NCBI GenBank assembly: GCA_041671565.1
Contig: JBAZBH010000001.1
Span: forward strand, 7,552-71,551
Origin: Patescibacteria group bacterium
GTDB lineage: Bacteria > Patescibacteriota > Patescibacteriia > JACRDY01
Length of the DNA: 64,000 nucleotides
Reading direction: 5' to 3'
The notes under the pieces are model-generated. The model did not search any database, was not told where the DNA came from, and saw nothing but the letters and a program-made list of their open reading frames with translations. Below, in pieces: positions 22,449 through 56,759 of this stretch (position 1 is its first letter; the number at the start of each line of letters is the position of its first letter). The position numbers and the translations under genes were made by a program.

Positions 22449-22456
22449 AGAGATAG

Positions 22457-24081: not shown

Positions 24082-24883
24082 ACTCAACCACCTTGAATGA
24101 CTTAATAATTTTTTCTTTGATTTCAGCGGCGGGCGAGTTTTGGATACTGCAGTCAAAACTCAAAAGGTAAAAACCGTTGTCTTCCAAGAGCAGGCCGTCA
24201 TTAGAGCATTCGGCGCCAATCGTCACTTGATAAGCTTTTTGCCCGCTGAGTTTGGCATCAGCGACTTTTTTAATGCCACCTAGACCCTGGTCGGCCAATA
24301 AATCCGCTAAATTTTTGTAGTTAGTCTCGCCGCTCTGCGACTTGAAAGCTTTGGCGAGGCTAGCGAGATCCGGCCAATAATCCACGGTTAAATATTTATA
24401 ATAACCGGGATTGGCCTCGCCCATCACCGCCAAATCGGCGTCAGCGTTAAACACTAAGAACTTGGCCAGTGTGCTGGAGGTTTTCTGCTCCTCGGCGGTG
24501 GCAGCCTCAAACAAAAAAGTCTCGGGGTAGCTAATCTCAAAGTGCTTGCCCTGAAAAGTTTTCCAATCGCCAATCTCGGCCGTGGCGCGGCGGAGCGGTT
24601 CAACTAGATTGGTATTAATACTACTCAACCGATTATTTAAACTTAAATTCGCGCCGGCCTCACACTCACTGACCTGATTTTTGGCCGCGGCCGCTTCGGC
24701 TTTAAGTTTAGTTACCTGGCCGCGATACAGCGAGCTGACAGCGACCACGGCAATAATGGCCAAAACGACAACGGCGACGAGAGCGAACTTTAGCCACAAG
24801 ACGGCGTGGCTTTTTTTGAAGAGGGACATAGGAGGAGGTATTAGATTATTATTTAAAATCACATAACACATAACATGGAACAA
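24080..24883 (-). CDS. Hypothetical membrane-anchored protein. It probably starts at MSLFKK near 24828.
   Basis: A single N-terminal TM helix (LKFALVAVVVLAIIAVVAV) followed by a soluble domain. No recognisable motifs. Confidence 0.4.
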   Translation of the reverse strand: MFHVMCYVILNNNLIPPPMSLFKKSHAVLWLKFALVAVVVLAIIAVVAVSSLYRGQVTKLKAEAAAAKNQVSECEAGANLSLNNRLSSINTNLVEPLRRATAEIGDWKTFQGKHFEISYPETFLFEAATAEEQKTSSTLAKFLVFNADADLAVMGEANPGYYKYLTVDYWPDLASLAKAFKSQSGETNYKNLADLLADQGLGGIKKVADAKLSGQKAYQVTIGAECSNDGLLLEDNGFYLLSFDCSIQNSPAAEIKEKIIKSFKVVE

Positions 24884-24926
24884 GGGTGGTTATAGGTCTC
24901 TTGTTATGTGTTCCATGTTATGTGAT
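24858..24926. repeat. Copy C1 of a ~70-bp imperfect palindromic element built from cacataa-type heptamers.
   Basis: atcacataacacataacatggaacaagggtggttataggtctcttgttatgtgttccatgttatgtgat. A near-identical copy lies at 39422. Confidence 0.8.
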
Positions 24927-30802: not shown

Positions 30803-30816
30803 ATAATATATTTATG

Positions 30817-30950
30817 TTTTAAGTTCAAAACCCTAAGTTCAAAGTTCAAATCAAGTTCAAAGATCAAATGATTATTCTCGGTTAGCCATGAAGCCGCTTT
30901 TGGCCTTTGGATTTGATTTGAACTTTGAATTTTGAACTTTGAACTTTTTA
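30817..30950. repeat. Copy B2 of the agttcaaa-type inverted-repeat element.
   Basis: ttaagttcaaaaccctaagttcaaagttcaaatcaagttcaaagatcaaa ... tttgatttgaactttgaattttgaactttgaact. Confidence 0.8.
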
Positions 30951-33109: not shown

Positions 33110-33242
33110 GAGATTTAAGATTTAGGATTTAAGATTTAAGAATGTCGGTAATCAGCGTTTAACCTAATAATCATGGTTAAGGGTTTAGCTTAGTTCAATA
33201 CGGAGTTTATTCTTAAATCTTAAATCCTAAATCTTAAATCTC
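33110..33242. repeat. Inverted repeat E1 with arms of tandem agatttaag units and a ~65-nt spacer.
   Basis: agatttaagatttaggatttaagatttaagaat ... attcttaaatcttaaatcctaaatcttaaatct. A fragment lies at 39368-39388. Confidence 0.75.
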
Positions 33243-33745: not shown

Positions 33746-33925
33746 AGTGATTGTTTACGATTTAGCAACTAGATATTAAATAAAAAATCCCCCTGAACGG
33801 TTATGGAGATAATTAACTCTTTAATAATAGCGTACCTAAAAATGCTGTCAAGAGGGATATGTCTAGTGGATATTAAGCTTATTTTAGGCTTTTTCTAGTT
33901 TACCAGAAAGAACTAATTTTAGGGT

Positions 33926-34047
33926 AGAAATAGAGAAATAAAGAAATAAAGAAATAGTTCTAGTGAGTGATTATTCCAACAAGATCTTTTATTGTCTAAC
34001 TCTACCTACCTCCAATTTCTTTATTTCTCTATTTCTTTATTTCTTCT
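33926..34047. repeat. Inverted repeat F with arms built from gaaata(a)ag units.
   Basis: gaaatagagaaataaagaaataaagaaatag ... caatttctttatttctctatttctttatttc. Confidence 0.65.
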
Positions 34048-34051
34048 TTTA

Positions 34052-35452
34052 TCAAAACTTCCCCTGTAAATAATCCCCTAATTCCGCGATTTTGATTCTT
34101 TCTTGTTTCATCGTGTCGCGGTCCCGAACTGTCACCGCCCTGTCTTCAAGCGTCTCAAAGTCCACGGTCACGCAATACGGCGTGCCGACTTCGTCCTGGC
34201 GGCGGTACCGTTTGCCAATGCTCTGAGTTTCGTCGTAGTCAACCGAGAAGTTCTGGCGCAATTCCGCGGCCAGCGGCTCGGCAATAGTAGCCAGTTCTTC
34301 TTTTTTGGACAAAGGCAGGACGGCAACTTGAATCGGCGCCAGATTCTTCGGGAACTTCATCACCACGCGGGTTTCAGTTTCACCGTCTTTGGCAGTTGGC
34401 GCCTCTTCCTCGTGGTAAGCCTCCAAGAGGCAAACCAGCATCATCCGGTCCATGCCAAAGGTCGGCTCGATCACATGCGGCAAAAATTTTTCGCCGGTTT
34501 CCGGGTCGGTGTACTGCAAATCCTGACCGCTAACGGCCTGGTGCCGTGAGAGGTCAAAATCCGTGCGGTAAGCGATACCATGGAGCTCTTTGACGCCAAA
34601 AGGATATTGGTACTCGATATCCACGGTTCGCTTGCTGTAATGCGCCCGCTCCCCGTCCGGAATCTCATGCCAGATCAAATGATCCATATTTACCTGCATA
34701 ATGTCCTGCCACCAGCGCTTGATTTCGCTTAGCCACATTTCAAAAACTTTTTCCCAGTCTTTGGGGTTAATGAAGTATTCCAGCTCGCCGATTTCAAACT
34801 CTTTGGTGCGGAAGATGAAGTTGCCCGGGGTGATTTCGTTCCGGAAGCACTTGCCAATCTGGGCAATGCCAAAGGGCAAACGGCGGCGCGTGACATTCAG
34901 AATATTTTTAAAATTAACAAACATGCCACCGGCGGTTTCCGGCCGGAGATAAGCGACCGTCGAGCTGTCTTCGGTCGGACCAAGGAAGGTTTTCAGCATC
35001 TGGTTGAAATTTTTGGGCTCAGTTAAAGCGCCTTCGCAATCCGGACAAACCAGCTCGCTGATAGTTTTAGGCTGTTCTTTGTCATGACCCGGCTCCAAAC
35101 TATTCATTTCCAAAAGGTGGTCGGCGCGGAAGCGGTGGTGGCATTTCTTGCATTCCACCAATAAATCATTAAAGTTCTGCAAATGGCCCGAGGCTTCCCA
35201 AGCTTTGGGGTTCATGATAATCGCCGAGTCGAGTGGCACCATGTCGGCGCGTTCCTGCACAAAAAACCGCCACCAAGCTTTCTTGATGTTTTGCTTGAGG
35301 AGGTGGCCCAGCGGGCCGTAGTCCCAGGAGTTGGCGAGGCCGCCGTAGATTTCCGAACCCGGGAACACCAAGCCGCGGCGTTTGCAGAGCGAGACGATTT
35401 TGTCCATTTTGTCTTCCTTGTTTTCGGGTTTAACTTGAGTTTTAATAGTCAT
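34052..35452 (-). CDS. glyQS: Glycyl-tRNA synthetase (alpha2 dimeric type).
   Basis: The N-terminus GLVFPGSEIYGG...WDYGPLG matches the class II GlyRS alpha2 family. A C-terminal anticodon-binding domain follows. Confidence 0.9.
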   Translation of the reverse strand: MTIKTQVKPENKEDKMDKIVSLCKRRGLVFPGSEIYGGLANSWDYGPLGHLLKQNIKKAWWRFFVQERADMVPLDSAIIMNPKAWEASGHLQNFNDLLVECKKCHHRFRADHLLEMNSLEPGHDKEQPKTISELVCPDCEGALTEPKNFNQMLKTFLGPTEDSSTVAYLRPETAGGMFVNFKNILNVTRRRLPFGIAQIGKCFRNEITPGNFIFRTKEFEIGELEYFINPKDWEKVFEMWLSEIKRWWQDIMQVNMDHLIWHEIPDGERAHYSKRTVDIEYQYPFGVKELHGIAYRTDFDLSRHQAVSGQDLQYTDPETGEKFLPHVIEPTFGMDRMMLVCLLEAYHEEEAPTAKDGETETRVVMKFPKNLAPIQVAVLPLSKKEELATIAEPLAAELRQNFSVDYDETQSIGKRYRRQDEVGTPYCVTVDFETLEDRAVTVRDRDTMKQERIKIAELGDYLQGKF

Positions 35453-39360: not shown

Positions 39361-39421
39361 AGGAAGAATTAAGATTTAAGAATACCTGTAGATTTGCATC
39401 TTACGGTATAACTTGGTTAAA

Positions 39422-39490
39422 ATCACATAACACATAACATGGAACAAGGGTAGTTATAGGTCTCTTGTTATGTGTTCCATGTTATGTGAT
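39422..39490. repeat. Copy C2 of the ~70-bp imperfect palindromic element.
   Basis: atcacataacacataacatggaacaagggtagttataggtctcttgttatgtgttccatgttatgtgat. It differs from C1 at one position. Confidence 0.8.
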
Positions 39491-39541: not shown

Positions 39542-40555
39542 CTATTTTGTCGCTAGAATACTCCGTTTGTAGCTCTCCAGGTTCTCGAGCGCGATTCCCG
39601 TCCCCTTGGCAACGCAGAGTAGCGGTTCGTCGGCGACATACGCCGCCACGCCGGTGGCGCGGGAGATGAGTTGGTCGATGTTGCGGAGTAAAGCCGAGCC
39701 GCCGCTGAGAATAATGCCTTTATCAATCACATCGGCCGCCAGCTCCGGCGGAGTTTTATGCAGGACATCTTTGACCGCCACAATAATCCCTTCCAGCTCG
39801 TTTTGAATGGCGTCGGTCACATCGTCCGAGGTGACGGTAATCGTCTTGGGCAGACCCGAGACCATATCGCGGCCGCGGATTTCCATTTGCATCCGCTCTT
39901 CCAGATATAGGGCCGAGCCGATTTCAATCTTAATATCTTCGGCCGTCCGTTCGCCGATCGCCAGGCCGTATTTTTTGCGGACATGGTTACTGATCGCGGC
40001 GTCAAACTTGTTGCCGCCGATGCGGACCGAAGTGGAAGCAACAATGCCGCCGAGCGAGATAATCGCCATCTCCGAGGTGCCGCCGCCAATATCAATAATC
40101 ATGTGGCCGGAAGCCGAACCGATCGGGATATTGGCGCCAATCGCCGCCACAATCGGCTCTTTGATAATATAAGCGGCGCGGGCGCCCGCGGCAATTGTCG
40201 CGTCAATGACCGCCCGTTTCTCGGTCGAAGTAATGCCGGCCGGCACCGCCACCATCACTTCCGGCCGAAAAAGGTGCACGCCGCCAAGGGCTTTATTAAT
40301 AAAATAACGAAGCATGGCTTCGGTGGTTTTGTAGTCGGCGATCACGCCGTCTTTAAGCGGCCGTCGGGCGATAATCGTATCCGGCGTCCGGCCGATCATT
40401 TCTTTCGCCTCTTTACCCACCGCCAGAATTTTCTTGTCTAAGCGCGAAGTCGCGACTACCGAGGGTTCATTGATAATAATCCCCCGTTTCGGCACATGCA
40501 CCAAAACATTGGTGGTGCCGAGATCAATCGCGATTTTCTTGATAAATTTGAACAT
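39542..40555 (-). CDS. mreB: Rod shape-determining protein MreB (paralog 1). It sits apart from mreCD.
   Basis: The actin-fold motifs are IDLGTTNVLVHV, DIGGGTSE and ILSGGSALL. Confidence 0.9.
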   Translation of the reverse strand: MFKFIKKIAIDLGTTNVLVHVPKRGIIINEPSVVATSRLDKKILAVGKEAKEMIGRTPDTIIARRPLKDGVIADYKTTEAMLRYFINKALGGVHLFRPEVMVAVPAGITSTEKRAVIDATIAAGARAAYIIKEPIVAAIGANIPIGSASGHMIIDIGGGTSEMAIISLGGIVASTSVRIGGNKFDAAISNHVRKKYGLAIGERTAEDIKIEIGSALYLEERMQMEIRGRDMVSGLPKTITVTSDDVTDAIQNELEGIIVAVKDVLHKTPPELAADVIDKGIILSGGSALLRNIDQLISRATGVAAYVADEPLLCVAKGTGIALENLESYKRSILATK

Positions 40556-43230: not shown

Positions 43231-43312
43231 GAATTAGTATTCAGGGAACAGTATTCGGGGAACAGGGAAAAACGACCCCTGAATACTGTATACTGCCCCC
43301 TGAATACTTACT
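43231..43312. repeat. Copy D1 of the gtattcaggg/cccctgaatac inverted-repeat element.
   Basis: agtattcagggaacagtattcggggaacagggaaaaacgacccctgaatactgtatactgccccctgaatact. Confidence 0.75.
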
Positions 43313-44360
43313 TAAACCATTGCCTCATAACCTTGGCGTCAACCTTTCTTAACCGTTTTAACTGCCGCCGTTTATGCCAAACATTGGGAATTAAGGCGAA
43401 AAACTGACCCACCGACCGGGTAGTGCCGACCTCGCATATTAGCACATAGGCGATTTTTTTCAACTCATAGCCAAGTATCCAGGGTAAGGCCCGGAAGAAA
43501 TTGCCCAAATACTCGTTTTTGGCGAGCAGGAGCCAATGATTGCGGAAAGACAGCCGGTTAACAAACCGCGACTTGCGGCGGCGGTCGCGCCAGGTAATCA
43601 GATTGCCGCCCGCGGCATGGCCAAAGCCGGTGCGGTAGTGATAGGCTTCGGCAGTGGGCAAATACAAGGCCGACCAGCCGTTTGACTGCAACCGCCAAGC
43701 GAGATCGACATCATCTTTATACATAAAAAAATCTTCATCCAGATATTCATAATAATCAGCCTCAGCCGTAAATTTTAAATTTTCTCCACGGCGGCGATTT
43801 TTGATTTTCACCGCTTCCAGGGCCGCCCGACGAAGGAGCACCAGATTACCCGATAAGCCAAAAACTTCTTCGGTTTGCTGATATTGGCCCTTATCTTCCT
43901 CACCCGCTCCCCGGTCATAAAACCGGCGCGACTGGCGAGCGAAGATTCCGGTAGTATCAATAATTTCCGGGCGAATACCCGGCGCCGCCGCCTCTGACGA
44001 ATTAATTTTTAAAACCTTGCCGCTAAGGCTACTCAACTTCGGCCGGGCGTCAGCGACCGCGATAATTTTCTCCAACCAGTCCGGCGCCAAAATCACATCT
44101 TGGTTCAGAAGCAAAACGAACTCGCTCTCCCAAAACTTGATCGCCTGATTATTGCCCTGACAAAAACCTAGATTTTTAAAATTCTGTAAAACCGTCACTT
44201 CCGGATAATCCCGCCGCAAATGCTCCACCGTGCCGTCCTGCGAGCCATTATCCACCACCAAAATTTTAAAATCGCGGTAAGTTTGGTTAAAAACCGACCG
44301 CAGACAGTCGTCGAGGTATTTGATGGCGTTGTAGGTGACGATATTTATAGACACTTTCAT
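43308..44360 (-). CDS. Glycosyltransferase family 2
   Basis: The N-terminus is VSINIVTYNAIKYLDDCLRSV...VVDNGSQDGT. Confidence 0.8.
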   Translation of the reverse strand: MKVSINIVTYNAIKYLDDCLRSVFNQTYRDFKILVVDNGSQDGTVEHLRRDYPEVTVLQNFKNLGFCQGNNQAIKFWESEFVLLLNQDVILAPDWLEKIIAVADARPKLSSLSGKVLKINSSEAAAPGIRPEIIDTTGIFARQSRRFYDRGAGEEDKGQYQQTEEVFGLSGNLVLLRRAALEAVKIKNRRRGENLKFTAEADYYEYLDEDFFMYKDDVDLAWRLQSNGWSALYLPTAEAYHYRTGFGHAAGGNLITWRDRRRKSRFVNRLSFRNHWLLLAKNEYLGNFFRALPWILGYELKKIAYVLICEVGTTRSVGQFFALIPNVWHKRRQLKRLRKVDAKVMRQWFK

Positions 44361-44379
44361 ATTAAAAAGTTATTCATTC

Positions 44380-44470
44380 CCTACGAATTACGAATTAGCG
44401 CGAATGTACGAATTACGAATCGCCGTGGTGGCTGGATTCGTACATTCGCGCTAATTCGTTATTCGTAGGG
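44380..44470. repeat. Copy A4 of the cgaat/attcg palindromic element (full copy, with a different spacer).
   Basis: ccctacgaattacgaattagcgcgaatgtacgaattacgaat ... attcgtacattcgcgctaattcgttattcgtaggg. Confidence 0.75.
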
Positions 44471-44471
44471 G

Positions 44472-46130
44472 CTAATATATTTCTTTTCTGTAGCACTCTT
44501 CGCAATAAACCTTTTCCGGCCGGTCCGGCGCGTAGGTGGTTTCAAATTCATTAGCGCAGCCGGGCCTCATGCATTGGCGATGATAAAGCCGGCGGGGATT
44601 ATTATGCCAGGATAACTGTTTAAGATGGCGGCAACCCGGACATAGGCGCGGCAAAGGCAACTTTTGCGCTCGATAAAATTTTAACTCTTGCGTGATAATT
44701 TTGTAATTGCGTTGGCAGGCATGGCAAGCCAAAATTTCATTGACGATTGAATCCGGCGCTTCCCCAATTTTATCCGGCAATTCTTTGATGATTTCTTTGC
44801 CTTTGGTAATAAAAATATCATCGCGCCAATTATAACCTTGCCTTAGTGCCTCGTCTTTAGTCAAAGGAAAAAAATTCTGCGCTTCGGTTTCATTATAGCC
44901 AAAAGGTGAAAATTGGGGCGGGAAAAACTCGCCGTATTCCCCATCTTGCTTCATCTGGGCGATAATCTGCTGTTTTAATTTCCGATATTCGCTTTCAGTA
45001 TATTGTTTATTTAAAATACAGAAACGCTGGCCCTTTAAGCCGGAACAGCCAAAACAATCTTTCACATTATGGCTATGCGACAGATATTGGCAATCATTGA
45101 CCGTATAAGTCATGTAAGAAAAATAGGTATTATAACCCTGGCCGATGCCTTGAATTTCATAGAGCAGTTCGCTGCCCACTGGCTGACCAAAACCATAAGA
45201 ATCACGGCAATCTTTCACACCCTCGCAGCCCCAGCAATTAACCAAATCTTCGCCGTCGATCACAAGAAAACAACTTTGGCAGTTTTTAGCGTTAAGCAAA
45301 TAATCGCCGGTAGAGTTAACAACTTTGTTAATTTCGGCGAATTTATGGATAATTTGGCTTTTAGTTTTTTCAAACTCTTTTTCTAAAACGGAAAACTGTT
45401 GAAAGCTGGAAAAATCAATCTCTTGAATCTTCTTTTGATACTCTGTTTCGGTTAGTTGCTGGCCGCGGAAAACATATTTCTGGTTGCGCAGGTTAAAACT
45501 CATAAAACAATCTTGGCAACCGTGGCAATTGTAACAAAACTTTAAATTGTAAGAGTTTTGGCAGTTAATGGCGTGCAGGCAATTAAAACATTGGAAACAC
45601 CAAAAACATTGGTAACAGAGTTCGCAGTTTTTATACATCATGTAGCTGTCCACAATATCTTTACTGTTAAACACCCAATGAGAATAAAAACAATCTTCGG
45701 CAAAAAAAATCACGCTGCAAGAATAGCAATTTTTATCATTGCCGGAATGGGCAGTATAATCGGAGTTGATGTTATTTTGGGATAAAAGCGCGGCTTTAGG
45801 CACAGCTAAAAATAATTCTTGCCATTGTTCGAAGAACGGCCGATTTTTGTCCCACTCGCGGCCATAAGCCTGCGAATCCCACTGGTCGCCCCACCAACAG
45901 TCGCGGCAATAAACCGGAAATTTGTTTTCCGGATGATAAACCGAGATTATTGGCTTTTGGCAAAAATCGCAATTTCGTTGATATAAAACTTGTGGATTTC
46001 TAAAAGCCAGTTTCCGTTGCATGCGGCAAGCCGGACACCACGACGGCTCGGGCACACTAATTTTATTATAAAACTGCCGATCGCTGTCGGTGATAATAAA
46101 CTCGGTTTGGCAACTTTTACAGATTGGCAT
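44472..46130 (-). CDS. Cysteine-rich multi-zinc-ribbon protein (paralog 1, 552 aa).
   Basis: About 10 percent Cys. The N-terminal ribbon is MPICKSCQ...CPACR. The central region has repeated C-x2-C-x2-C-x2-C modules. A C-terminal ribbon is present. Its C-terminus, YCEECYRKEIY, is identical to that of the neighbouring gene. Confidence 0.5.
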   Translation of the reverse strand: MPICKSCQTEFIITDSDRQFYNKISVPEPSWCPACRMQRKLAFRNPQVLYQRNCDFCQKPIISVYHPENKFPVYCRDCWWGDQWDSQAYGREWDKNRPFFEQWQELFLAVPKAALLSQNNINSDYTAHSGNDKNCYSCSVIFFAEDCFYSHWVFNSKDIVDSYMMYKNCELCYQCFWCFQCFNCLHAINCQNSYNLKFCYNCHGCQDCFMSFNLRNQKYVFRGQQLTETEYQKKIQEIDFSSFQQFSVLEKEFEKTKSQIIHKFAEINKVVNSTGDYLLNAKNCQSCFLVIDGEDLVNCWGCEGVKDCRDSYGFGQPVGSELLYEIQGIGQGYNTYFSYMTYTVNDCQYLSHSHNVKDCFGCSGLKGQRFCILNKQYTESEYRKLKQQIIAQMKQDGEYGEFFPPQFSPFGYNETEAQNFFPLTKDEALRQGYNWRDDIFITKGKEIIKELPDKIGEAPDSIVNEILACHACQRNYKIITQELKFYRAQKLPLPRLCPGCRHLKQLSWHNNPRRLYHRQCMRPGCANEFETTYAPDRPEKVYCEECYRKEIY

Positions 46131-46230
46131 AATTAAGTATTCAGGGAACAGTATTCAGTATTCAGGGAACTATATCCATGAACGGCGGATACGAACCCCT
46201 GAATACTGAATACCGTTCCCTGATCCCTTA
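46131..46230. repeat. Copy D2 of the gtattcaggg/cccctgaatac inverted-repeat element.
   Basis: agtattcagggaacagtattcagtattcagggaac ... gaacccctgaatactgaataccgttccctga. Confidence 0.75.
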
Positions 46231-47976
46231 GTATATCTCCTTACGGTAGCACTCCTCGCAATAAATCTTCCGATACCCCCACTCCGCCGGATAATATGAA
46301 GTAATTTTCTGCCCACAAAGCCCGCAAGCGGCCTCGCGGCCGAATAAGCCGGCCATCTGGCGGAAGTTTTCGGTCACGCGGTAATTATAATAATAGCGCG
46401 GCAAAGGAATGTTATTCGCTTGATAAAACTTGATTTCCTGCGGGATATAGCGAAAAATCTTGCCGGTTTTGCCGCATTTAATGGTTTTATTAACCACCGC
46501 TTCGGTTTTCGTCCCCTGAATACTGTCCGGCAATTCCTCGACCGTTAAATCAATTTTGGGCTCGGTGATAATCTCCTCCTGCCAACCGGCGCCGCGCGCC
46601 GCGACCTGCTCGCGGTTTTCCGGGAAATAAAGATAAGCGAGCGTGTCATTATAACCGTTATACATCATCGACACCGGCAGATACTCGCCATATTCGCCGC
46701 GCGCGGTCATTTTTTCTTTGATTAGTTTAACCAGCCGGCGATATTCGGCTTCGGGATATTGTTTATTCAGAATACAAAAACTCTTTTTGCGAAGACCAAC
46801 ACAACCGAAACAATCATGGCAATCTTCGCATTGATCCAGGTATTCGCTGTCGCGGCAACGGATAGCGTAAACACAAAATTTAAAATTATAGCAATCAAGC
46901 GACTGGGCAGAGCCGCAACTGAGCTGACCGCGGTAAGGTCCAACCGAGTCATAAATATCTTTATTGCCTAGCGCCCGCATCAGATTAAAGCAATCTTCGC
47001 CCTCTTCCATAAAAAAACAGTCGCGGCAATTTTTGCTCTCAGTCAGATAGTTACCCGAGCAGTTAACGGTTTTAACATTAAAGTTATCGCGGTGGATCGC
47101 CTCGGCAACTAAAACTTTTTTAAATTCAGCTTTTAAGTCCTGAATTGTGAACCAAGAGCCGAAATTGATTTCGGCGATTTTCCGCTCATACTCCGCCGCG
47201 CTGTATTGCTGATTTTTGATGCAGTATTCGGCGTTGCGGAGGTTCCAGCACATCAGACAATTCTTGCAGCCACGGCAATCATAGAGAAAATAACTATCCA
47301 GGCAGTCGCGGCTTTCCAGTGAATAATGGGTATTGTAACACTGCCAACAGCGAGTGCAGCTGTAGCATTTTTCCAGGTTATAAGAGTAGACCGAGTCAAA
47401 ACAATCTTTACAACCGACCATGCGATAACCAAAATACAAATCTTCACTTTCGGCAAAAGAACGGGTGAGATAACAATTCTTGCTGGTGTAAGCATCGTCG
47501 CAGTATTCACAATTAACATTAGTACCGTCAGTCAACTGATGATAATGCGGCGTCTTTTTTTGCAGGGCGGTTAATTGTTCGAGAAACGGCTGATCCAAAT
47601 TTACTTTCGCCTCCGGCACCTGCCAATTGTCTTTCAACCAATTTTCTCTTTTATAAACCGGGAACGGCGCCTGGGGTGAAAATGTCGAAATAATACTTTC
47701 GCCGGTCTGATCGCATTTTCTCTGGTAAAAATTGCCGAACGGCCAAAACGACGCCAAATGCTGGCGCCGGCAGTTGACGCAGAGCGTCGGCAGAGGCACG
47801 CCAATCCGGCCGTAGAACGCACGGTCCTCGGGGGAAATAGTAAACGCGGTTTGGCAGTTTTTACAAGCAGGCATAGGAATAATTAAAAGTGTAAAAATCA
47901 AAATGGAAAATGACAATTTAAAATTAAAAATGTCTAGTAAGCTAGTTAATTCATTAAACCGCCGAGAAGCTGGCAA
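46228..47976 (-). CDS. Cysteine-rich multi-zinc-ribbon protein (paralog 2). The likely real start is MPACKNCQ near 47868.
   Basis: It has the same architecture as 44472-46130: MPACKNCQ...CVNCR, repeated C-x2-C-x2-C-x2-C modules, and the C-terminus YCEECYRKEIY. Confidence 0.5.
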   Translation of the reverse strand: MPASRRFNELTSLLDIFNFKLSFSILIFTLLIIPMPACKNCQTAFTISPEDRAFYGRIGVPLPTLCVNCRRQHLASFWPFGNFYQRKCDQTGESIISTFSPQAPFPVYKRENWLKDNWQVPEAKVNLDQPFLEQLTALQKKTPHYHQLTDGTNVNCEYCDDAYTSKNCYLTRSFAESEDLYFGYRMVGCKDCFDSVYSYNLEKCYSCTRCWQCYNTHYSLESRDCLDSYFLYDCRGCKNCLMCWNLRNAEYCIKNQQYSAAEYERKIAEINFGSWFTIQDLKAEFKKVLVAEAIHRDNFNVKTVNCSGNYLTESKNCRDCFFMEEGEDCFNLMRALGNKDIYDSVGPYRGQLSCGSAQSLDCYNFKFCVYAIRCRDSEYLDQCEDCHDCFGCVGLRKKSFCILNKQYPEAEYRRLVKLIKEKMTARGEYGEYLPVSMMYNGYNDTLAYLYFPENREQVAARGAGWQEEIITEPKIDLTVEELPDSIQGTKTEAVVNKTIKCGKTGKIFRYIPQEIKFYQANNIPLPRYYYNYRVTENFRQMAGLFGREAACGLCGQKITSYYPAEWGYRKIYCEECYRKEIY

Positions 47977-48071
47977 TTTTACATTTTACACTGTCATTTT
48001 TATTTTTGATTTTTAAACTTTACATTTGCCAACAAATTTTCTTCATAAATTCATAAAACCCGTTACAGTTA

Positions 48072-49458: not shown

Positions 49459-49983
49459 TTAATCTAATATTTTGGCATCATAATTTTTTACATAATGCCT
49501 GTAATAGCCAATAAATCCGCTTATTAAAAACGATCCTTCGGCGATGACTCCCATCGGCGAGAAAATAATCGCGTTATACAAAACAATTATTGATGTACCA
49601 CCCATCATTAATTTTCTCATCAACCTGTTGTCTGCTTGAAAGTTTCCAGTGATAAAAATGATTAATCCAATATAAATTATCAAATCGGACAGGGCCTTAT
49701 AGGTGAAAAATAATGAAATCGTGTTTAGCGCGATAAAGACAAACAAGTATTTTTTATTGGTGGTGAAATAGCAGGTGATAAATCTCAAAACGGAAATAAA
49801 AACAATAACACCGGCCGCTGTTTTATTTAATAAAAAATAATGGGCGCTGATTAAGCTGGCTGAAACAATCAAGCATAAAAAAGTATATTCTCGCTTTTTA
49901 TATTGCAAACTTAGAAAGTCAAAGCCCATGGCGATAGCCATCGCGACTTGCGAGATTATAAACGGAAGCGTTAAGTCAGGCAT
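49459..49983 (-). CDS. Hypothetical polytopic membrane protein inserted between mreB and mreC. AT-rich.
   Basis: A 174-aa protein with 4-5 predicted TM helices. No recognisable motif. Confidence 0.4.
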   Translation of the reverse strand: MPDLTLPFIISQVAMAIAMGFDFLSLQYKKREYTFLCLIVSASLISAHYFLLNKTAAGVIVFISVLRFITCYFTTNKKYLFVFIALNTISLFFTYKALSDLIIYIGLIIFITGNFQADNRLMRKLMMGGTSIIVLYNAIIFSPMGVIAEGSFLISGFIGYYRHYVKNYDAKILD

Positions 49984-50016: not shown

Positions 50017-51066
50017 CTAGACATCATTAGTGGAGGGAATTAATAGATCTTTGAGATTATCCAAATCTTCCAAAATCAGGCCGGTGCCGCGCGCCACGCA
50101 AGTCAGCGGATCATCGGCGACGCGCACCGGGATCTGGGTGATTTTGGAAATCACTTTATCCAGATTTTTCAGGAGCGCTCCCCCGCCGGTTAAGACCATG
50201 CCGCGCTCATAAATATCGGCCACCAAATCCGGCGGCGTAATTTCTAAGGTCGCTTTGATATTCTCAATGATGGTTTTAACTGACTTCGCCAGCGCCTCGC
50301 GGATTTGACCGTCGGTCACCATAATTTCTTTCGGCAAGCCGGAAATCAAATCGCGGCCGCGCATTTCCAACTCCAGCGGGTCTTTGAGCGGCCCGGCCGA
50401 GCCGATTTTCTTTTTGATTTCTTCAGCCACCGGCTCGCCCAAAAGCAGGTTAAAATTTTCCCGGGCGTACTGGACGATATTACGGTTCATCTCGTCGCCG
50501 GCAATGGTAATCACTTTAGCAGTAACAATGCCACCAAGAGAAATCACGGCAATCTCGCTGGTGCCGCCGCCGATATCAACGACTAAATTACCCACCGCCT
50601 CCTGCACCGGCATCCGCGCGCCAATCGCCGCCGCCATGGCTTCTTCCACCAAGAAAACCTCGCGCGCGCCGGCGGACAGCACCGCGTCTTCGGCTGCTTT
50701 CCGTTCCACTTCCGTCACTTCCAGCGGCACGCCGACAACGACCCGCGGCCGCGGAAAAAATGAAAAGCCCTCACCGTGCACTTTATTAATAAAATATTTC
50801 AACATTTTCTCCGCCACTTCAAAGTCGGAAATCACGCCGTTAACGAGCGGCCGCGTCACCAATAAATGTGGCGGCGCTTTGCCGATCATCCGCTGGGCTT
50901 CCGCGCCAACCGCGATAATCTGGTCGGTGCGGGTATTGACCGCCACCACCGACGGCTCGTTAATCACGATCCCCTTACCCATAACATAAACCAAGGTATT
51001 GGCCGTACCGAGGTCAATACCCAAATCTTTGGAAAAATAGCCGAGTAAGCGATCAACTAAAAACAT
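50017..51066 (-). CDS. mreB: Rod shape-determining protein MreB (paralog 2), in operon with mreCD.
   Basis: The actin-fold motifs are IDLGTANTLVYV, DIGGGTSE and VLTGGGALL. Confidence 0.9.
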   Translation of the reverse strand: MFLVDRLLGYFSKDLGIDLGTANTLVYVMGKGIVINEPSVVAVNTRTDQIIAVGAEAQRMIGKAPPHLLVTRPLVNGVISDFEVAEKMLKYFINKVHGEGFSFFPRPRVVVGVPLEVTEVERKAAEDAVLSAGAREVFLVEEAMAAAIGARMPVQEAVGNLVVDIGGGTSEIAVISLGGIVTAKVITIAGDEMNRNIVQYARENFNLLLGEPVAEEIKKKIGSAGPLKDPLELEMRGRDLISGLPKEIMVTDGQIREALAKSVKTIIENIKATLEITPPDLVADIYERGMVLTGGGALLKNLDKVISKITQIPVRVADDPLTCVARGTGLILEDLDNLKDLLIPSTNDV

Positions 51067-51133: not shown

Positions 51134-51186
51134 CCGGCTGAAAAGCGATGCGAATGCTACAAATTACATGCGAATACTACGAATAA
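51134..51186. repeat. Copy A5 (left-arm half copy) of the cgaat/attcg element.
   Basis: ccggctgaaaagcgatgcgaatgctacaaattacatgcgaatactacgaat. It shares the gctacaaatt variant with A6. Confidence 0.75.
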
Positions 51187-51190
51187 TTAA

Positions 51191-51583
51191 CTATTCCGCT
51201 TGCTGGTTGTCTTTACTGAATGACAAAAATAAAAATTCTAAGAGTGACAAAAAGGCGACCAAGATTAATCCCAGCCACCAGGTTAAAAGGCTTAAACTAA
51301 CTAGTATCAACGAGCCGACAAGTAAAAGTGAAAATAATAGTCCCTGGCGGAGCGCCACCGCCACTTGGCGGACCGCTAAATCCTGGCGCACCAAAAGGCG
51401 CCGCAAAGCCAGCCCCAGAACGGCAAACGAAGTTGTTAAAGCAAAAAATAGGGTTAAGTAGAAAAAAAATAAGCCAAGAAAACCAGCCACTTCTGGATTA
51501 ATGCTAAACAGCACCACCACCCACGCGGCCCAGCAAAAAACCGCGATAATCGCCATAAAAAACAGGTATTTCTTTAAGGTCAT
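51191..51583 (-). CDS. Hypothetical small polytopic membrane protein
   Basis: A 130-aa protein with about 4 TM helices. Confidence 0.4.
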   Translation of the reverse strand: MTLKKYLFFMAIIAVFCWAAWVVVLFSINPEVAGFLGLFFFYLTLFFALTTSFAVLGLALRRLLVRQDLAVRQVAVALRQGLLFSLLLVGSLILVSLSLLTWWLGLILVAFLSLLEFLFLSFSKDNQQAE

Positions 51584-51820
51584 AAGGAGTGTTTAAGGTG
51601 GTTATATCTTAACAAAAATTGGGGTCTAAAACAAGGGTGCGAATTTATAAATAATTTCCAATTTTTAATTTAAAATTTCTAACCAATTTATAATTTTTAA
51701 TTTTAAATTACCACGAACTCGGTTGGAGGCTTAAAATTAAGAATTAAACCTTAAAAATTATTAAATAATAAATCTCAAATTCTCCGCCAACTCCTGCCCG
51801 CCGAAGAGGACGCGCTACAA

Positions 51821-52309
51821 CTACCGGTAGACTGCGCAGATTCTTCGCACCCATTTAAACTGCCTCAAGCTTTTAATAGGATAAGGCATATGGTCAAACC
51901 ACCGATCGGCAAAAGATTCGACTGTCAGTTTTATCACTTTTCCTAAATATGGGTCGGCTAAAAATATTTTATCTTTTTCCAGGCCGACAACCACAGAAAA
52001 ATGCGCGCCTTGTTCCGGGGAAAACCAATTAACAATCACCGGCACCTTCTTTTTAATAAACTTTTTTACCTCAACAATCGATGAATTGTCTTTACAAAAT
52101 CCCTTAAAACCAATTTTAGCGACCGCAACAACAAATTTATCATCTGGGCAACCCTCGTTTCGGTTAACTTTTCCGTTCTTAATCTCCATGGCAGTCAGTC
52201 TGGCCCAATACATTTCCGACTGTTTCACGCCATAATAATCCATCACCATCTTAAAACACGCCGGCCCGCAAAAGCCATAAGATTGCTTAAAGATTTTTAG
52301 TTTGATCAT
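51821..52309 (-). CDS. Peptidase C39-like (papain-fold cysteine protease) domain protein.
   Basis: The catalytic Cys context is SYGFCGPACFKMV. The downstream His context is GAHFSVVVG. About 160 aa, with no transporter domain. Confidence 0.55.
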   Translation of the reverse strand: MIKLKIFKQSYGFCGPACFKMVMDYYGVKQSEMYWARLTAMEIKNGKVNRNEGCPDDKFVVAVAKIGFKGFCKDNSSIVEVKKFIKKKVPVIVNWFSPEQGAHFSVVVGLEKDKIFLADPYLGKVIKLTVESFADRWFDHMPYPIKSLRQFKWVRRICAVYR

Positions 52310-52321
52310 ATAACAAAATAA

Positions 52322-53140
52322 TTATATTTTTTCATCTGCCGATTTATCAGCCTTTTTAGTAACAATAAAAGCCACATCTTTAAAAGCCGCCGTTTCATTT
52401 TTTTCAATAACCACCGGGTATTGAGCTTCAAATTTTTCTTTTAGAAAATCAAAGTATTGACCTTGCGTTCTAGCAACAAACAATTTACCGCCGGGATTTA
52501 ATTTTTCAATGGCGGCGCCGAGCGTCTGATCAAAGTATCTATCCTGAGGCAAGAAACCGCTACCTGAATAAAGCAACTCGCCAGCGCTATCAATTTCCAA
52601 ATCAAATTCCGGCTTGTCTGACATTTCCAAAATACTCCGCCATTTGGCGTCATTGGGATGCAAATCAGAACTTATTTGGGATAAAATTTCTCGGCTTTCC
52701 GCCGCTGATAGATTAATTTTACCTTGTTTAATATCCTGAACGATGGCTTTCTTTCTTCTTTCCGCTCTCTTCTTTACGAGCGAAGTTCCAAAAACTTCAA
52801 CCTGATCGCCGAATTTTGAACGAATTTGGTCATTGAAAAACCCGAAACCGCAGCCTAGGTCTAAAATTTTCATTTTACCTTTTATGCCAGCCGCTTTTCT
52901 CGTTTCAATCATTCCCGGTATCACTTCATTTAAAAAATCAACCCCGTGCAATTCATTGATAGTATAATCGCCTTCTCGAGAATAATCGCCCATTTTTCTG
53001 TCTGCCAGCCGACATTCCATAACTCGCCGATCGCGAGGCTTTTCGACATAATGATCTTTCGCCGCCGTGCTCCATTTCTCGCCAAAATGTTTTTTACTCT
53101 CGTCGCTCAAAAACGGCCGATTTTCAAATGCATTTGCCAT
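52322..53140 (-). CDS. Class I SAM-dependent methyltransferase
   Basis: Motif I is ILDLGCGFGFF. The acidic loop and motif II follow (VEVFGTSL). Confidence 0.65.
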   Translation of the reverse strand: MANAFENRPFLSDESKKHFGEKWSTAAKDHYVEKPRDRRVMECRLADRKMGDYSREGDYTINELHGVDFLNEVIPGMIETRKAAGIKGKMKILDLGCGFGFFNDQIRSKFGDQVEVFGTSLVKKRAERRKKAIVQDIKQGKINLSAAESREILSQISSDLHPNDAKWRSILEMSDKPEFDLEIDSAGELLYSGSGFLPQDRYFDQTLGAAIEKLNPGGKLFVARTQGQYFDFLKEKFEAQYPVVIEKNETAAFKDVAFIVTKKADKSADEKI

Positions 53141-53165
53141 AGATTAATTTTAATTATAACCCGCG

Positions 53166-53459
53166 CTAAGTAATAAACCTCAACTTCTTCACCAATTCCT
53201 CCCCGCCGAAGCGGCCGTTCAAGAGTTGAATAGCGCGGCGCTGATTGAGCTGGAGTTCTTGGGCAATGGCCGGCGACAGGCAGGCAACAGTCAGAGTTTT
53301 GTCTTTGAGATACAGCGCGCGGACCTTTTTGCCGGCTGGCGTGCCTAAAACTTCCACTGCCACCTCGTCAAAGGCGGCCGTCACCCGCGCGGCGTCAACC
53401 TGAACGGCGATGCCGGCGACTTTAATTCTTTTTTGCAGTAAACTTCTTAACGAGTCCAT
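53166..53459 (-). CDS. DUF721/DciA-like small protein
   Basis: About 97 aa. The N-terminus LRSLLQKRIKVAG...AVEVLGTPAG and the region LTVACLSPAIAQEL resemble DUF721 family members found near replication genes. Confidence 0.45.
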   Translation of the reverse strand: MDSLRSLLQKRIKVAGIAVQVDAARVTAAFDEVAVEVLGTPAGKKVRALYLKDKTLTVACLSPAIAQELQLNQRRAIQLLNGRFGGEELVKKLRFIT

Positions 53460-53469
53460 ATTTTAATAA

Positions 53470-53530
53470 TTCATTAGTATTCGTAGCATTCGCATGTAAT
53501 TTGTAGCATTCGCATCGCTTCCAGCCAGAT
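53470..53530. repeat. Copy A6 (right-arm half copy) of the cgaat/attcg element, inverted relative to A5.
   Basis: attcattagtattcgtagcattcgcatgtaatttgtagcattcgcatcgcttccagccag. Its reverse complement matches A5 closely. Confidence 0.75.
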
Positions 53531-53588
53531 AATTAGTACGACCATCGCGAATTAACCACAAAAAACCTAAACAATTAACACAATTAGC

Positions 53589-56500
53589 TTAATTCTCTCT
53601 AAACTCGCAAATTTCCCGGAAGTCGCAAAAGCGGCAGGGCCAGCCGGGCGTAGCCGTAAAATCCGACCCTTGAATCCGATCAATGATATTTATAATTTTT
53701 TCTTGGATTTTTTCTTTATCTTTCTCCGAACCGATAAACGACACGGCTTTATTTTCCTCAATGTAATAATAAGTCAGTTTCTGCGGCTGCAGCCCAAAGG
53801 CCTGCTCGGCCGCCAACTGGTAAATCAAAAGCTGGTCGCGGTCGTCGTCTTTGACTTCGGTTTTCGGTTGGCCGGTTTTATAGTCAATAATTTCCACCCC
53901 GCCAGCCACTTGGTCAATCCGGTCCACCCGGCCGGAGATTTTGTACGGGCCAACCGCGATTTTAAACGGGCTTTCCAGTTTAATCGGCGTCGGCCGATCT
54001 TGGCTGATTAGCCGATAATACTCTTTAAGTATTCGCCGGCCCTTGTCGCGGTATTCCTTTTTCTCGGCCGCATTTTTATACCAAGTATCCACCCAACTCG
54101 CTTCATAAAGCTCAAGCAAAACTTCCCATGACGGCAGAGCCAGCTTGTTGCCCGCCTTGGCGCCAAATAAATCAGATTGTCCCCCGCCCTCCAACATCTG
54201 GTTAAAAAACTTTTGCAAGGTCACATGAATGGTGGAGCCAAAACTAAAGCTGGGTTTGCCAAAAGTCGGAATTTTAAGGATATAGGCGTATTTATACTGG
54301 AGCGGGCATTTTTCAAAACTGGAAATCTGCGAAAACGGGAATTTGTCCGGCAAAGGCAACTTCGCCGCCGCCCCGCCAGCGCTAGTAGCATATTTAACCG
54401 TCTCAATAGTTTCCTTGTTCTCTTGTTCTCTTGTTCTCTTATTCTCTTGTCCCCCATACCCCAACTCCGCCAAAAACCGTGACGGCTTTTTTTTCTGTGA
54501 CCCGCCGTAATCTTCGGCGGAAGTCAAAAATAAGCCCAGCTTGGCGCGCGTGGCGGCCACATAAAACAGCCGCCGTTCTTCCTCCAGATGAATGTCGCCC
54601 GAGGGCGCCACTTCTTTGACCAGCTCATCGGGCAATTCAATGCTCTCGGCCCGTTCCGAAGTGGGAAACCGCAAATGAACCAGATTGACAATAAAAACAT
54701 ACTTGAACTCCAGCCCCTTGGCGCCATGAATGGTCATCACCCGCACAACATCCGGCCCGGCCTCGACATCCGCCTGCAGGCCGCCTTCTTCACCCGACTC
54801 CAACTCTAATTTCATTAACTCCAGAAAATCTTTCAGCTTCGGGTCATCAATTTCTTCTTCAAAGGCTTTGATTTTTTTATAAAATTGGTTCAAATACAGA
54901 AGATCTTCGCGGCCTTTCTCGTTGTCTAAGTCTTTCAAATAACGGACATAACCCAGCTCGGTCAAAAAAGTTATTAGCAGTTCGCCAACTGACTTTTCTT
55001 GCGCCAGCTGGGTGTGCCGGACAACAAAACTTAAAAGCTGATTAATTGTGTCTAGGGTTTTCGGCTCCAGGCCGGACATCAGGGCCGCCTTTTGCAGACT
55101 TTCATAGAGTGACCAACCCTGGCGGTAAGCCTGATGCGACAACTGGACTAGATCTTGCGGCGCGATTTTGAACATCGGAAAATTCAGCACCCGCCAGACG
55201 GCCGGACTTTCGTGATAATTGTCCAAAAGCTTGAAGTAAGCGAGTACATCTAAAATAACTTCTTTGGCATAAAGCCCGCGCAGGGCCAAAAACTGAAACG
55301 GCACACCGGCGCGGAGTAACGCGGCGTTAAATGGCTTGGCCGAAGCGTTCGCCCGCACCAAAATGGCAAAATCCGACCACTCGGTCTCCGGGTCGGCCTT
55401 TTTTAAAGCCAAAATCTGGTTGAGCACGCCGGCCACTTCCTCGCCGACCGTGCCATAATGCCGGTGCTCGATTTGGCCGCCGATCTCGTTTGCCGCCTTG
55501 AGCTGTTTATCAATTTTCTTGAATTTTTTGAGATTAACGCCCTTTTTTTGCGCCTGTTCTAATATCGCCGCGGATTCATTCAACCGGCACTCCAGCCGAT
55601 TGGGGTTATTGCCTTGGATAAATTTATAAGCCAAGTCCAAAATGTTTTGCGCCGAACGGTAATTCTCGGTCAGTACCACTTCCTTGGCCGCCGAATAATC
55701 GCTTTTGAATTCCAAGATATTAGAAAGTGACGCCCCGCGGAAGCGGTAAATCGCCTGGTCGTCATCACCCACCACGGTCAGATTATTTCGGGGGCTCGCG
55801 AGCAGCTTAATCAGTTGATACTGCGCCCAATTAGTGTCCTGAAACTCGTCCACCAAAATATATTTAAATTGTTCCTGATAACGCCGGAGAATCTGCGGCC
55901 GGTCTTGGAATAACTTCAAAGTATAATTAATCAAATCGCCAAAATCCAAAGCGTTGTTATCAAGCAATAATTGCTGATAAACCTGATACGCCCCCGCCAC
56001 CTCGTTTAATCTTTTAACCTCCATTTCATCCACCGCCTCTGACTTATCCTCTGACGGCGAATTATTGTCTTGTTCTTTTGTTCTTTTGCCTGCCCCGCGC
56101 ATGCTGGGGTTCTTTTGTTCTTTTGTTTTAATGTTCTTGTGTTTTAATGTCCTCCCCCCGCTACTCTCCATCCCATCCAAATTAATTTTCAACTTCTCGG
56201 CGTACTCCAAATAGTCCCCGGCCGAAATCATTTCGTCTTTCGCTCGAGAAAAATGTTTCAGGAGCGCATGGATAAACTTAGTTGGGTTGCCCAAGGGGTG
56301 GTAATAGTCCAAGTTAAACTTAGCCAAATTCTGCCGCACCAAAAGCCACTGCGCCGTTCCATCCATAATTTTAAAATCGCTCGGCAGACCAATGTCCAAG
56401 GCGTGAGTTTTTAGAATCCGCTCGCAAAACGAATGGAAAGTCGCAATCCACAAATCAACATAACCGTAAGGTAACAGCCGGTCCACCCGCTCTTCCATTT

Positions 56501-56759
56501 CTGCCGCGGCTTTATCGGTAAAGGTGACGGCCAAAATCTCCTCGGGCTTAGCTTTATCCGAAAGCGCCAACCAAGCGATCCGCTGGGTGATGACCGTGGT
56601 TTTGCCCGTGCCGGCGCCGGCGACAATCAAAAGCGGCCCGGCGTCATGGGTAACCGCCAATTTTTGCTCCGGATTAAGGTTTTTAGTGATATCTTTGGTC
56701 TCCATAAGCACTAATATCTTAGCATAAATTAAAGGTTTTGACAGTCGGCAAGAATCCAA
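53589..56759 (-). CDS. UvrD/PcrA-type helicase fused to a C-terminal RecB/Cas4-like PD-(D/E)xK nuclease with an Fe-S Cys cluster (AddA-like).
   Basis: Walker A is AGAGTGKT. Motif II is VDEFQDTN. The C-terminal region has GRVDRID...EIIDYKTG plus Cys residues spaced like the Cas4/AddB-type Fe-S ligand set (CPLQ...CRFCDFREIC). Two in-frame K/E/Q-rich tandem-repeat insertions are present. Confidence 0.85.
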   Translation of the reverse strand: MDSCRLSKPLIYAKILVLMETKDITKNLNPEQKLAVTHDAGPLLIVAGAGTGKTTVITQRIAWLALSDKAKPEEILAVTFTDKAAAEMEERVDRLLPYGYVDLWIATFHSFCERILKTHALDIGLPSDFKIMDGTAQWLLVRQNLAKFNLDYYHPLGNPTKFIHALLKHFSRAKDEMISAGDYLEYAEKLKINLDGMESSGGRTLKHKNIKTKEQKNPSMRGAGKRTKEQDNNSPSEDKSEAVDEMEVKRLNEVAGAYQVYQQLLLDNNALDFGDLINYTLKLFQDRPQILRRYQEQFKYILVDEFQDTNWAQYQLIKLLASPRNNLTVVGDDDQAIYRFRGASLSNILEFKSDYSAAKEVVLTENYRSAQNILDLAYKFIQGNNPNRLECRLNESAAILEQAQKKGVNLKKFKKIDKQLKAANEIGGQIEHRHYGTVGEEVAGVLNQILALKKADPETEWSDFAILVRANASAKPFNAALLRAGVPFQFLALRGLYAKEVILDVLAYFKLLDNYHESPAVWRVLNFPMFKIAPQDLVQLSHQAYRQGWSLYESLQKAALMSGLEPKTLDTINQLLSFVVRHTQLAQEKSVGELLITFLTELGYVRYLKDLDNEKGREDLLYLNQFYKKIKAFEEEIDDPKLKDFLELMKLELESGEEGGLQADVEAGPDVVRVMTIHGAKGLEFKYVFIVNLVHLRFPTSERAESIELPDELVKEVAPSGDIHLEEERRLFYVAATRAKLGLFLTSAEDYGGSQKKKPSRFLAELGYGGQENKRTREQENKETIETVKYATSAGGAAAKLPLPDKFPFSQISSFEKCPLQYKYAYILKIPTFGKPSFSFGSTIHVTLQKFFNQMLEGGGQSDLFGAKAGNKLALPSWEVLLELYEASWVDTWYKNAAEKKEYRDKGRRILKEYYRLISQDRPTPIKLESPFKIAVGPYKISGRVDRIDQVAGGVEIIDYKTGQPKTEVKDDDRDQLLIYQLAAEQAFGLQPQKLTYYYIEENKAVSFIGSEKDKEKIQEKIINIIDRIQGSDFTATPGWPCRFCDFREICEFREN

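Follow-up and report, generated by a model that had tools for sequence, protein, structure and literature searches.

Unpaired arms of a Patescibacteria-wide palindromic repeat family around chromosomal genes, and a candidate parent element carrying a GxxExxY nuclease gene

The 64,000-nucleotide stretch of a Patescibacteria group bacterium studied here (assembly GCA_041671565.1, contig JBAZBH010000001.1, positions 7,552 to 71,551; hereafter the window) contains, between mreB and a gene for a UvrD-like helicase, two single arms of a palindromic repeat rich in the motif CGAAT. These arms, A5 and A6, face each other in inverted orientation across four genes, and all the genes of the locus from mreB through the helicase gene lie on the minus strand (Table 1). 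A first-pass annotation, made from the sequence alone, described the enclosed genes as coding for a small membrane protein (hereafter TM, for transmembrane), a C39-like peptidase (C39), a methyltransferase (MTase) and DciA. Pfam searches agree with this gene content, the hits for the methyltransferase being weak. The annotation was also right in listing no transposase: we found none among the genes of the window and none in the A5–A6 unit. Its further proposal was that the four genes are the cargo of a mobile element resembling a miniature inverted-repeat transposable element (MITE) with terminal inverted repeats (TIRs), and it is this proposal, together with the nature of the repeat family itself, that our analysis addresses.

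Table 1. Genes of the A5–A6 locus and palindromic repeats of the window (positions are those of the window)
Feature	Positions	Strand	Remarks
mreB, flank on the A5 side	50017-51066	-	Pfam
A5 outward extension, TAATCCACGATGGTC...GGCTGAAA	51110-51142		common only to A6 and A2-left
A5 core, solo "left" arm	51143-51186		44.2 bits against the profile of other-genome arms
TM, small polytopic hydrophobic membrane protein, 130 aa	51191-51583	-	ancestral resident
AT-rich spacer, 237 nt, C39 to TM	51584-51820		two 32-nt tandem units at 51642-51705
Standalone C39-like cysteine peptidase	51821-52309	-	low GC; not at this position in relatives
S-adenosylmethionine (SAM)-methyltransferase-like protein (MTase)	52322-53140	-	weak Pfam hits only
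DciA (PF05258)	53166-53459	-	ancestral resident
A6 core, solo "right" arm	53477-53520		46.3 bits against the profile of other-genome arms
A6 outward extension	53521-53556		32/43 with indels against the A5 extension, inverted
UvrD-like helicase with C-terminal PD-(D/E)XK nuclease domain, flank on the A6 side	53589-56759	-	
A1, full palindrome	2277-2368		between def and fmt
A2, full palindrome	5620-5755 (or 5654-5755)		left arm with A5/A6-type extension; right arm of the A3 type (GATTAGCATCGC)
A3, unpaired solo right arm	7944-7984		outer end 2 nt ahead of the ATG at 7987
A4, divergent palindrome of CGAAT units	44379-44470		35-nt arms, 97% complementary; weak profile match
Further palindrome	7336-7498		
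Further palindrome	12690-12851		
Further palindrome	22456-22551		
Further palindrome	30816-30946		
Further palindrome	33110-33242		
Further palindrome	33914-34072		half at 23235-23299
Further palindrome	43236-43319		
Further palindrome	46125-46230		
Further palindrome	47881-48026		

The two arms are present as halves only, a left one at A5 and a right one at A6, just as had been annotated: a profile hidden Markov model (HMM) built from 138 arms, all of other genomes, detects no partner arm adjoining either of them, not even a degenerate one. The strong matches of this profile in the window (44-48 bits) number exactly seven: the left and right arms of A1 and A2, and A3, A5 and A6; because it matches nothing at the inner sides of A3, A5 and A6, these three are clean halves. 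A5 and A6 form an inverted pair over 43 nt (51143-51185 versus 53478-53520), of which 42 (98%) are complementary, with 2292 nt between them, and a weaker inverted similarity with indels extends outward to about 51110 on the A5 side and about 53556 on the A6 side. Their polarity is that of correctly facing ends with the outer ends outward. The outer end of A5, GCGATGCGAAT, is directed at mreB, and on the inner side 5 nt separate this arm from the TM stop codon; the outer end of A6 is directed at the stop codon of the helicase gene, and on the inner side 18 nt separate this arm from the start codon of DciA. L001, an independent assembly from ENA, matches the window with 100% identity over both junctions, which excludes an assembly artefact. 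Two Logan contigs from independent short-read assemblies (L002 and L003) both end inside A6, at window position 53514/53515.

The sequence variant that had been regarded as private to A5 and A6, and the claim that they are each other's closest relatives, did not survive comparison with further arms. The variant, CAAAT, is a single G-to-A change that is found also in the right arm of A2 and in arms of other genomes. Moreover, the left arm of A2 (5620-5695) is about equally close to both: A5 and A6 match at 47/50 positions over the core region, as against 44/46 for A2-left with A6 and 42/45 for A2-left with A5. In the outward extension A5 is even more similar to A2-left (35/42) than to A6 (32/43). 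Judged by these alignments, A5 and A6 would constitute a special pair only weakly; the window has three "long arm" copies, A2-left, A5 and A6, two of which face each other 2.3 kb apart. A possible DnaA box or replication-origin role for the TAATCCAC extension was considered and set aside, as other genomes do not conserve the extension and its surroundings are not those of an origin.

The origin of the enclosed genes is best seen from the nearest relatives that we compared (L019, L021 and L023), whose helicases are 69, 64 and 59% identical to that of the window. In L019 and L023 the order is LexA ... helicase–DciA–small TM protein–class II aminoacyl-tRNA synthetase (aaRS)–MreB–MreC–MreD–PBP2, and in L021 the helicase–DciA adjacency is likewise present, after which the contig ends. 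DciA thus directly follows the helicase in all three relatives and the TM gene follows DciA in two, and none of the three loci contains a cluster of CGAAT motifs. As these arm-free relatives keep that order, DciA and TM stood between the helicase and mreB before any arm did. The TM protein and its counterparts in the relatives are full-length orthologues, with 56% identity (E 8e-42) in the case of L019 and 43% in a second comparison, and the proximal part of the spacer upstream of its gene (TTGTTAAGATATAAC) is similar to what precedes the orthologous gene in L019. The relatives have the class II aaRS gene between TM and mreB, in the gap here occupied by A5, and no copy of that gene exists in the 64-kb window. 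From this comparison of gene orders, the novelties of the window lineage are MTase and C39 between DciA and TM, the loss of the aaRS gene, a YgjV gene and the two arms. The last-named gene, coding for a YgjV-family membrane protein (49459-49983; GC 0.345), is located between mreB and mreC, genes that directly follow one another in the relatives. Window positions 39566-40546 code for a second paralogue of MreB, which shares 47% identity with MreB of L019. A search with the exact MreB protein of the window found no strain variants on record.

Base composition divides the interval in a similar manner. The G+C content at third codon positions (GC3) is 0.64 for DciA and MreB, 0.58 for the helicase and 0.52 for TM, as against 0.36 for MTase, 0.45 for C39 and 0.42 for the YgjV gene. 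The low-GC stretch ends about 25 nt past DciA, and its other edge is over 400 nt inward of A5, on the far side of the TM gene. The GC3 of MTase marks it as a lineage-specific insertion. Its family is rare, with 20 homologues of at most 49% identity, all in unrelated contexts and without linkage to DciA, C39 or arms, such that MTase-based synteny was uninformative as a means of locating an empty site. The prediction that the four genes are foreign cargo, with an empty site in relatives, is not borne out: the relatives keep DciA (three of them) and TM (two of them) without arms, and the composition between the arms is heterogeneous. Since the ancestral gene row is kept in arm-free relatives, the A5–A6 interval is resident chromosome into which MTase and C39 came as a separate low-GC insertion; it is not cargo. 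This removes the tempting notion that DciA, the loader of the replication helicase, travels on a mobile element; here it is part of the chromosome.

The contrary explanation is that one palindrome or TIR element with ends of about 55-85 nt was split by a four-gene insertion, or that the entire segment is a non-autonomous mobile unit. It would accommodate the facing arms with their correct polarity and outward outer ends, the foreign look of MTase and C39, and two aspects of the family described below, namely that elsewhere it does carry DNA between its arms, a GxxExxY gene, and that one nested copy (L-L-gene-R-R) suggests insertion at palindrome centers. Nevertheless, we consider it highly improbable, as it has to contend with the helicase–DciA adjacency kept in three arm-free relatives and the DciA–TM–...–MreB order kept in two, with edges of the low-GC insertion that lie far from the arms and leave the ancestral TM gene outside it, with MTase homologues that elsewhere are unlinked to DciA, C39 or arms, and with a window devoid of a transposase or GxxExxY gene. 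There is also no target-site duplication. The annotation had suggested looking for one immediately outside the arms; none is present at the symmetric boundaries of A5 and A6, and the only match, among about 4000 boundary combinations scanned, is an AT-rich 7-mer at asymmetric boundaries, of the kind expected by chance and not convincing. Nor is one evident at A1, A2 or the A5/A6 pair, where the exact ends of the element are not fixed. Thus, the segment is like a composite or TIR-bounded cargo transposon in having two near-identical inverted ends around several genes, and unlike one in that the A5–A6 unit has no transposase and no target-site duplication, has not been seen at a second site, and has two of its four genes in their ancestral place.

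The arms are part of a wider set of copies in the window. With up to three mismatches allowed, there are 10 occurrences of the 17-mer core ATTCGTAGCATTCGCAT in the window, where chance would give 0.23, and the seven arms at five loci are accompanied by the divergent palindrome A4, all within 64 kb. The full copies A1, A2 and A4 are organized as arm, spacer and inverted arm, as first annotated, and when folded as RNA they reach -48 to -60 kcal/mol, compared with -19 to -26 kcal/mol for shuffles; the A5 and A6 halves fold no better than shuffled sequence. The solo arm A3 reads ...GCATCGCTTTT-ATG at its outer end, this ATG being the start of a gene for a WecG-type glycosyltransferase.

A further possibility is that A5 and A6 function together, either in a minus-strand read-through RNA, where their long duplex would clamp the segment from DciA to TM and be processed by RNase III like the stems that flank rRNAs, or in the DNA, as recombination substrates for an inversion of the segment. 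The predicted A6:A5 duplex is strong (-117 kcal/mol over about 85 nt), the genes are co-oriented so that read-through is possible, and the full copies that lie inside operons are necessarily transcribed as hairpins. However, the relatives are without arms at these sites, hence no conservation backs a function, and the TM gene's own conserved upstream sequence speaks against a single transcription unit. With regard to inversion, no recombinase was found among the genes examined, and the window and L001, the sole assemblies over both junctions (L002 and L003 fall short), have the same orientation. Searches of Rfam gave no match, either for the whole window at gathering thresholds or for the region at E up to 1, and a scan for promoters and terminators between 50900 and 53800 returned counts not above those of shuffles. 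Taken together, we deem a paired function very unlikely and favor A5 and A6 as two independent solo arms, for which the behavior of the family in other genomes supplies the context.

Outside the window, the arm is widely distributed. An exact-pattern scan of species-representative genomes retrieved 11 loci from about 10 metagenome-assembled genomes (MAGs), most of them labelled Patescibacteria, and at least 117 metagenome contigs carry an arm, giving with the representative loci a total of at least 128 contigs from diverse Patescibacteria. In the search for viral carriers one viral contig matched, and no more. The arm is about 45 nt long, with the consensus AAnGCGATGCKAAT...CGAAT, an outer end of the form AAnGCGATGC(G/T)AAT, and CGAAT motifs spaced 9-11 nt apart. 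Conservation ends 6 nt outside the ATGC (139 arms), and the outward extension of the long arms is not in the family consensus. In its usual form, the element is a hairpin-forming palindrome of about 100 nt (arm–spacer–arm) that fills the gap between two genes. Of the 137 arms from other genomes, 60 stand next to an inverted partner, invariably on the CGAAT side; 47 lack one, and the remaining 30 are ambiguous. The annotation itself had named common and unpaired half-copies as telling against its proposal; unpaired halves are in fact common, comprising A3 as well as the 47 of 137 arms elsewhere.

The positions of these copies relative to genes are equally distinctive. An ATG reading away from the arm is found 0-22 nt (mostly 0-10) from 46 of the 126 outer ends, and a stop codon 1-20 nt (mostly 1-5) from another 25. 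Palindromes are found inside tight operons, between def and fmt in the window and between rpsH and rplF in four very divergent genomes, and an element adjoins mreB in three genomes. The rpsH|rplF copies (L030, L074, L081 and L098), between the genes for ribosomal proteins S8 and L6, begin within a few nucleotides of the stop codon and end some 4 nt short of the following ATG; they span nearly the whole gap and therefore leave no room for a Shine–Dalgarno sequence. In L098, identical copies (at 771 and 1256) are situated on either side of rpsH.

A gene proved to be associated with these arms. Of the 47 halves without an adjacent partner, only those of four loci, L010, L012, L031 and L053, face another arm at a greater distance (381-520 nt), and each of these pairs encloses an open reading frame (ORF) of about 130 aa belonging to the PF13366 (PDDEXK_3)/TIGR04256 (GxxExxY) family. 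A tblastn search of 1.05 Mb of fetched loci identified six GxxExxY genes, five of which touch cgaat arms on the inner side of the arm; the sixth (L130), which is more distant, is flanked by related inverted arms of a GCGAAA type. In an all-against-all comparison of arm-adjacent ORFs, GxxExxY was the only gene to recur specifically on the inner side. Proceeding in the reverse direction, a gene-first profile search retrieved 5147 homologues, mostly on short contigs, from which four (L142, L146, L148 and L152) were picked solely on contig size, and inverted arms flank the gene on both sides in all four. Accordingly, the genes of the GxxExxY/PDDEXK_3 clade lie between two inverted arms in nine of nine cases examined (L010, L012, L031, L035, L053, L142, L146, L148 and L152).

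The gene-carrying units are intercalated at sites resembling those of the palindromes: between yidD and yidC (L142), between thyA and folA (L152), and, in L146 and L148, behind a T-box leader and ahead of thrS or an acetyltransferase gene. In these four, the 3′ end of the ORF runs into the right arm, which stops 1-9 nt before the ATG of the host gene. The putative T-box leader ahead of the unit (L146, about 2230-2420; L148, about 2200-2400) consists of a GGGTGGAACCG motif followed by a T-run, and a unit placed between such a leader and the start codon should occupy a position relevant to attenuation control. The units also show several departures from the simple form: L053 (3285-3911) has nested double arms in the order L-L-gene-R-R, the GxxExxY reading frame of L012 (769-1180) is broken by a frameshift, and in L152 (2207-2442) the left arm is a five- to six-fold tandem array facing a single right arm. 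The L146 contig bears a gene-carrying unit and a gene-less palindrome together. More generally, gene-less palindromes, gene-carrying units and solo arms coexist, and operons that are otherwise tight are broken up by the units.

Among the GxxExxY proteins, the catalytic D...(D/E)xK residues show no or almost no variation. These proteins have no sequence relative in the PDB; a confident AlphaFold model (pLDDT 88, pTM 0.80) has Cas4, lambda-type exonucleases and Hjc as its best structural matches there, from which the protein is predicted to adopt a minimal PD-(D/E)XK fold. In a survey of the PD-(D/E)XK superfamily (PMC3424549), the function of PF13366 is listed as "Unknown". We found no description of the arm–nuclease association in the literature, the searchable part of which is incomplete, so that an earlier description is possible.

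The regular architecture of the arms could alternatively be understood without mobility, if the CGAAT array, with its motif once per helical turn, were a conserved set of sites bound by a Patescibacteria protein, with a regulatory role at gene starts and with the halves acting as half-sites. The 9-11-nt spacing would fit this, as would the 46 of 126 outer ends close to a start codon, the recurrence at rpsH|rplF in four genomes and beside mreB in three, and the conservation of the arm across lineages whose S8 proteins are, as estimated by eye, only about 35-50% identical. Yet the orthologous sites of the nearest relatives are without arms, arms are scattered over unrelated loci, and tandem arrays and nested copies exist. 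Further, there is a tight linkage between the arms and a nuclease gene found interrupting otherwise tight operons, and the homologues of that gene sit mostly on short contigs, in the manner of multi-copy repeats. Hence, a purely regulatory array seems to us very unlikely. The more specific idea that CGAAT represents a LexA box was discarded, given that the distribution of the motif follows the nuclease gene and not SOS genes.

We read the palindromes instead as MITE- or REPIN-like derivatives of a nuclease-carrying selfish unit. The autonomous form would be the unit with two inverted arms around the gene for the ~130-aa GxxExxY/PDDEXK_3 nuclease, which presumably acts on the arms and thereby spreads the family; the ~100-nt palindromes may have arisen from such units by internal deletion, like MITEs. 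We therefore put forward, with the considerations for and against it about evenly balanced in our judgment, that a previously undescribed class of selfish elements exists across Patescibacteria, whose sole gene encodes a GxxExxY nuclease that recognizes or cuts arms made of CGAAT arrays and which spreads into the gaps of tight operons. A solo arm might then originate either because a palindrome lost its inner half or because a single "long" arm was copied, and the genome-specific extension shared by the long arms would be compatible with the latter route.

As for the locus itself, A5 and A6 occupy two neighboring intergenic gaps of the old gene row, TM|mreB and helicase|DciA, each of which keeps only the arm pointing away from the DciA–TM segment. 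At TM|mreB, one deletion running from the center of a palindrome through the aaRS gene could have produced both the missing gene and the clean half. On balance, then, it seems probable that A5 and A6 belong, as solo arms, to a palindromic repeat family found across Patescibacteria and that the four genes which they enclose do not constitute mobile cargo. The A5/A6 locus is in itself a case of ordinary repeat decay, and it is the family behind the arms that appears to be new. The earlier description of the element as MITE-like with TIRs stands for the family, whose arms elsewhere bracket a GxxExxY gene, and falls for the 2.4-kb four-gene segment.

Several observations weigh against this account. 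A5 and A6 are the best inverted pair of the window (42/43) and they face each other, a placement for which we estimate a chance of roughly 0.06-0.1, low though not negligible. Because both have the genome-specific extension, the pair resembles two complete "long" ends. Among the 47 halves of other genomes there is no other pair of solo arms around several genes. The decay route is a reconstruction, since no remnant of the lost inner arm is detectable; the GxxExxY gene, too, is absent from the 64-kb window, and we infer the mobility of the family from its distribution.

The closest parallel among known systems is provided by the REP (repetitive extragenic palindromic) sequences and REPINs of Pseudomonas and E. 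coli with their RAYTs (REP-associated tyrosine transposases), which are HUH/Y1 transposases of the IS200-like type. Like these, the cgaat family comprises short extragenic palindromes of two inverted arms and a short spacer in many copies per genome, frequent single arms, and a small protein gene flanked by two inverted arms. Unlike the IS200/IS605-type Y1/HUH RAYT genes, the cgaat-flanked gene encodes a ~130-aa PD-(D/E)XK nuclease of the PF13366/TIGR04256 family. Further, REPINs are species-specific, whereas the cgaat arm sequence is common to the whole superphylum, consists of CGAAT-motif arrays and yields copies that fill gene-to-gene gaps almost exactly.

Bacterial MITEs, such as the Correia elements of Neisseria, RUP/BOX and ERIC, present a second comparison. 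The cgaat elements are similar to them in being about 100 bp long, bounded by terminal inverted repeats, intergenic and co-transcribed as stable hairpins, and in including gene-less derivatives of a gene-carrying parent with the same ends. The family displays three of the attributes by which MITEs are recognized: TIRs with a short interior, a multi-copy and variable distribution, and a gene-carrying parent. It differs in that no target-site duplication was found and in that the parent encodes no known transposase family; the 2.4-kb A5–A6 span, moreover, greatly exceeds a MITE in size and contains resident chromosome. Finally, the intervening sequences of 23S rRNA contain a small ORF within a long stem, and I-Ssp6803I is a PD-(D/E)XK homing endonuclease encoded by a free-standing gene. 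The cgaat unit resembles the former in having a small selfish ORF in the loop of a long inverted repeat, and the latter in the PD-(D/E)XK nature of its enzyme. Unlike the rRNA and intron ORFs, it lies between protein-coding genes, and its copies at many unrelated loci are not explained by homing to a single allele.

The consistent bracketing of genes of the large PF13366/TIGR04256 family by such arms offers a concrete hypothesis of function, open to testing at the bench. If true, this would be the first function for the family, and the system would be a REPIN/RAYT-like one built on a different enzyme. The arms occur also as hundreds of gene-less palindromes wedged among the housekeeping genes of reduced genomes, which would help to explain the abundance of long hairpins in the intergenic regions of Patescibacteria; such repeats are, in addition, a source of assembly breaks in Patescibacteria MAGs.

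A search of plasmids for the gene yielded one distant hit, on the Persicobacter plasmid CP012852.1 (L155; 1400-2060), a Bacteroidota replicon. Here, the GxxExxY gene is flanked by AATCC arrays with a spacing of about 10 nt, which are direct and not inverted. Immediately upstream there is also the tail of a further GxxExxY-like ORF.

The window also harbors at least seven further unrelated families of intergenic palindromes between co-oriented genes (Table 1), mostly built of 7-10-nt sub-repeats, including AAGTTCA, GATTTAA, AGAAATA, AGTATTCAGGG and others. The CACATAACA family is represented by two 74-nt palindromes (24853-24926 and 39417-39490) that are 99% identical and 14.5 kb apart. Four of the palindrome families of the window are found on a contig from another metagenome (L091), at 6189-6293, 6940-7042, 7633-7742 and 10171-10200. 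One of these palindromes is 94% identical over 105 nt and no other L091 DNA is more than 80% identical to the window, and on this comparison of sequences the repeats of L091 appear to be better conserved than the genes around them.

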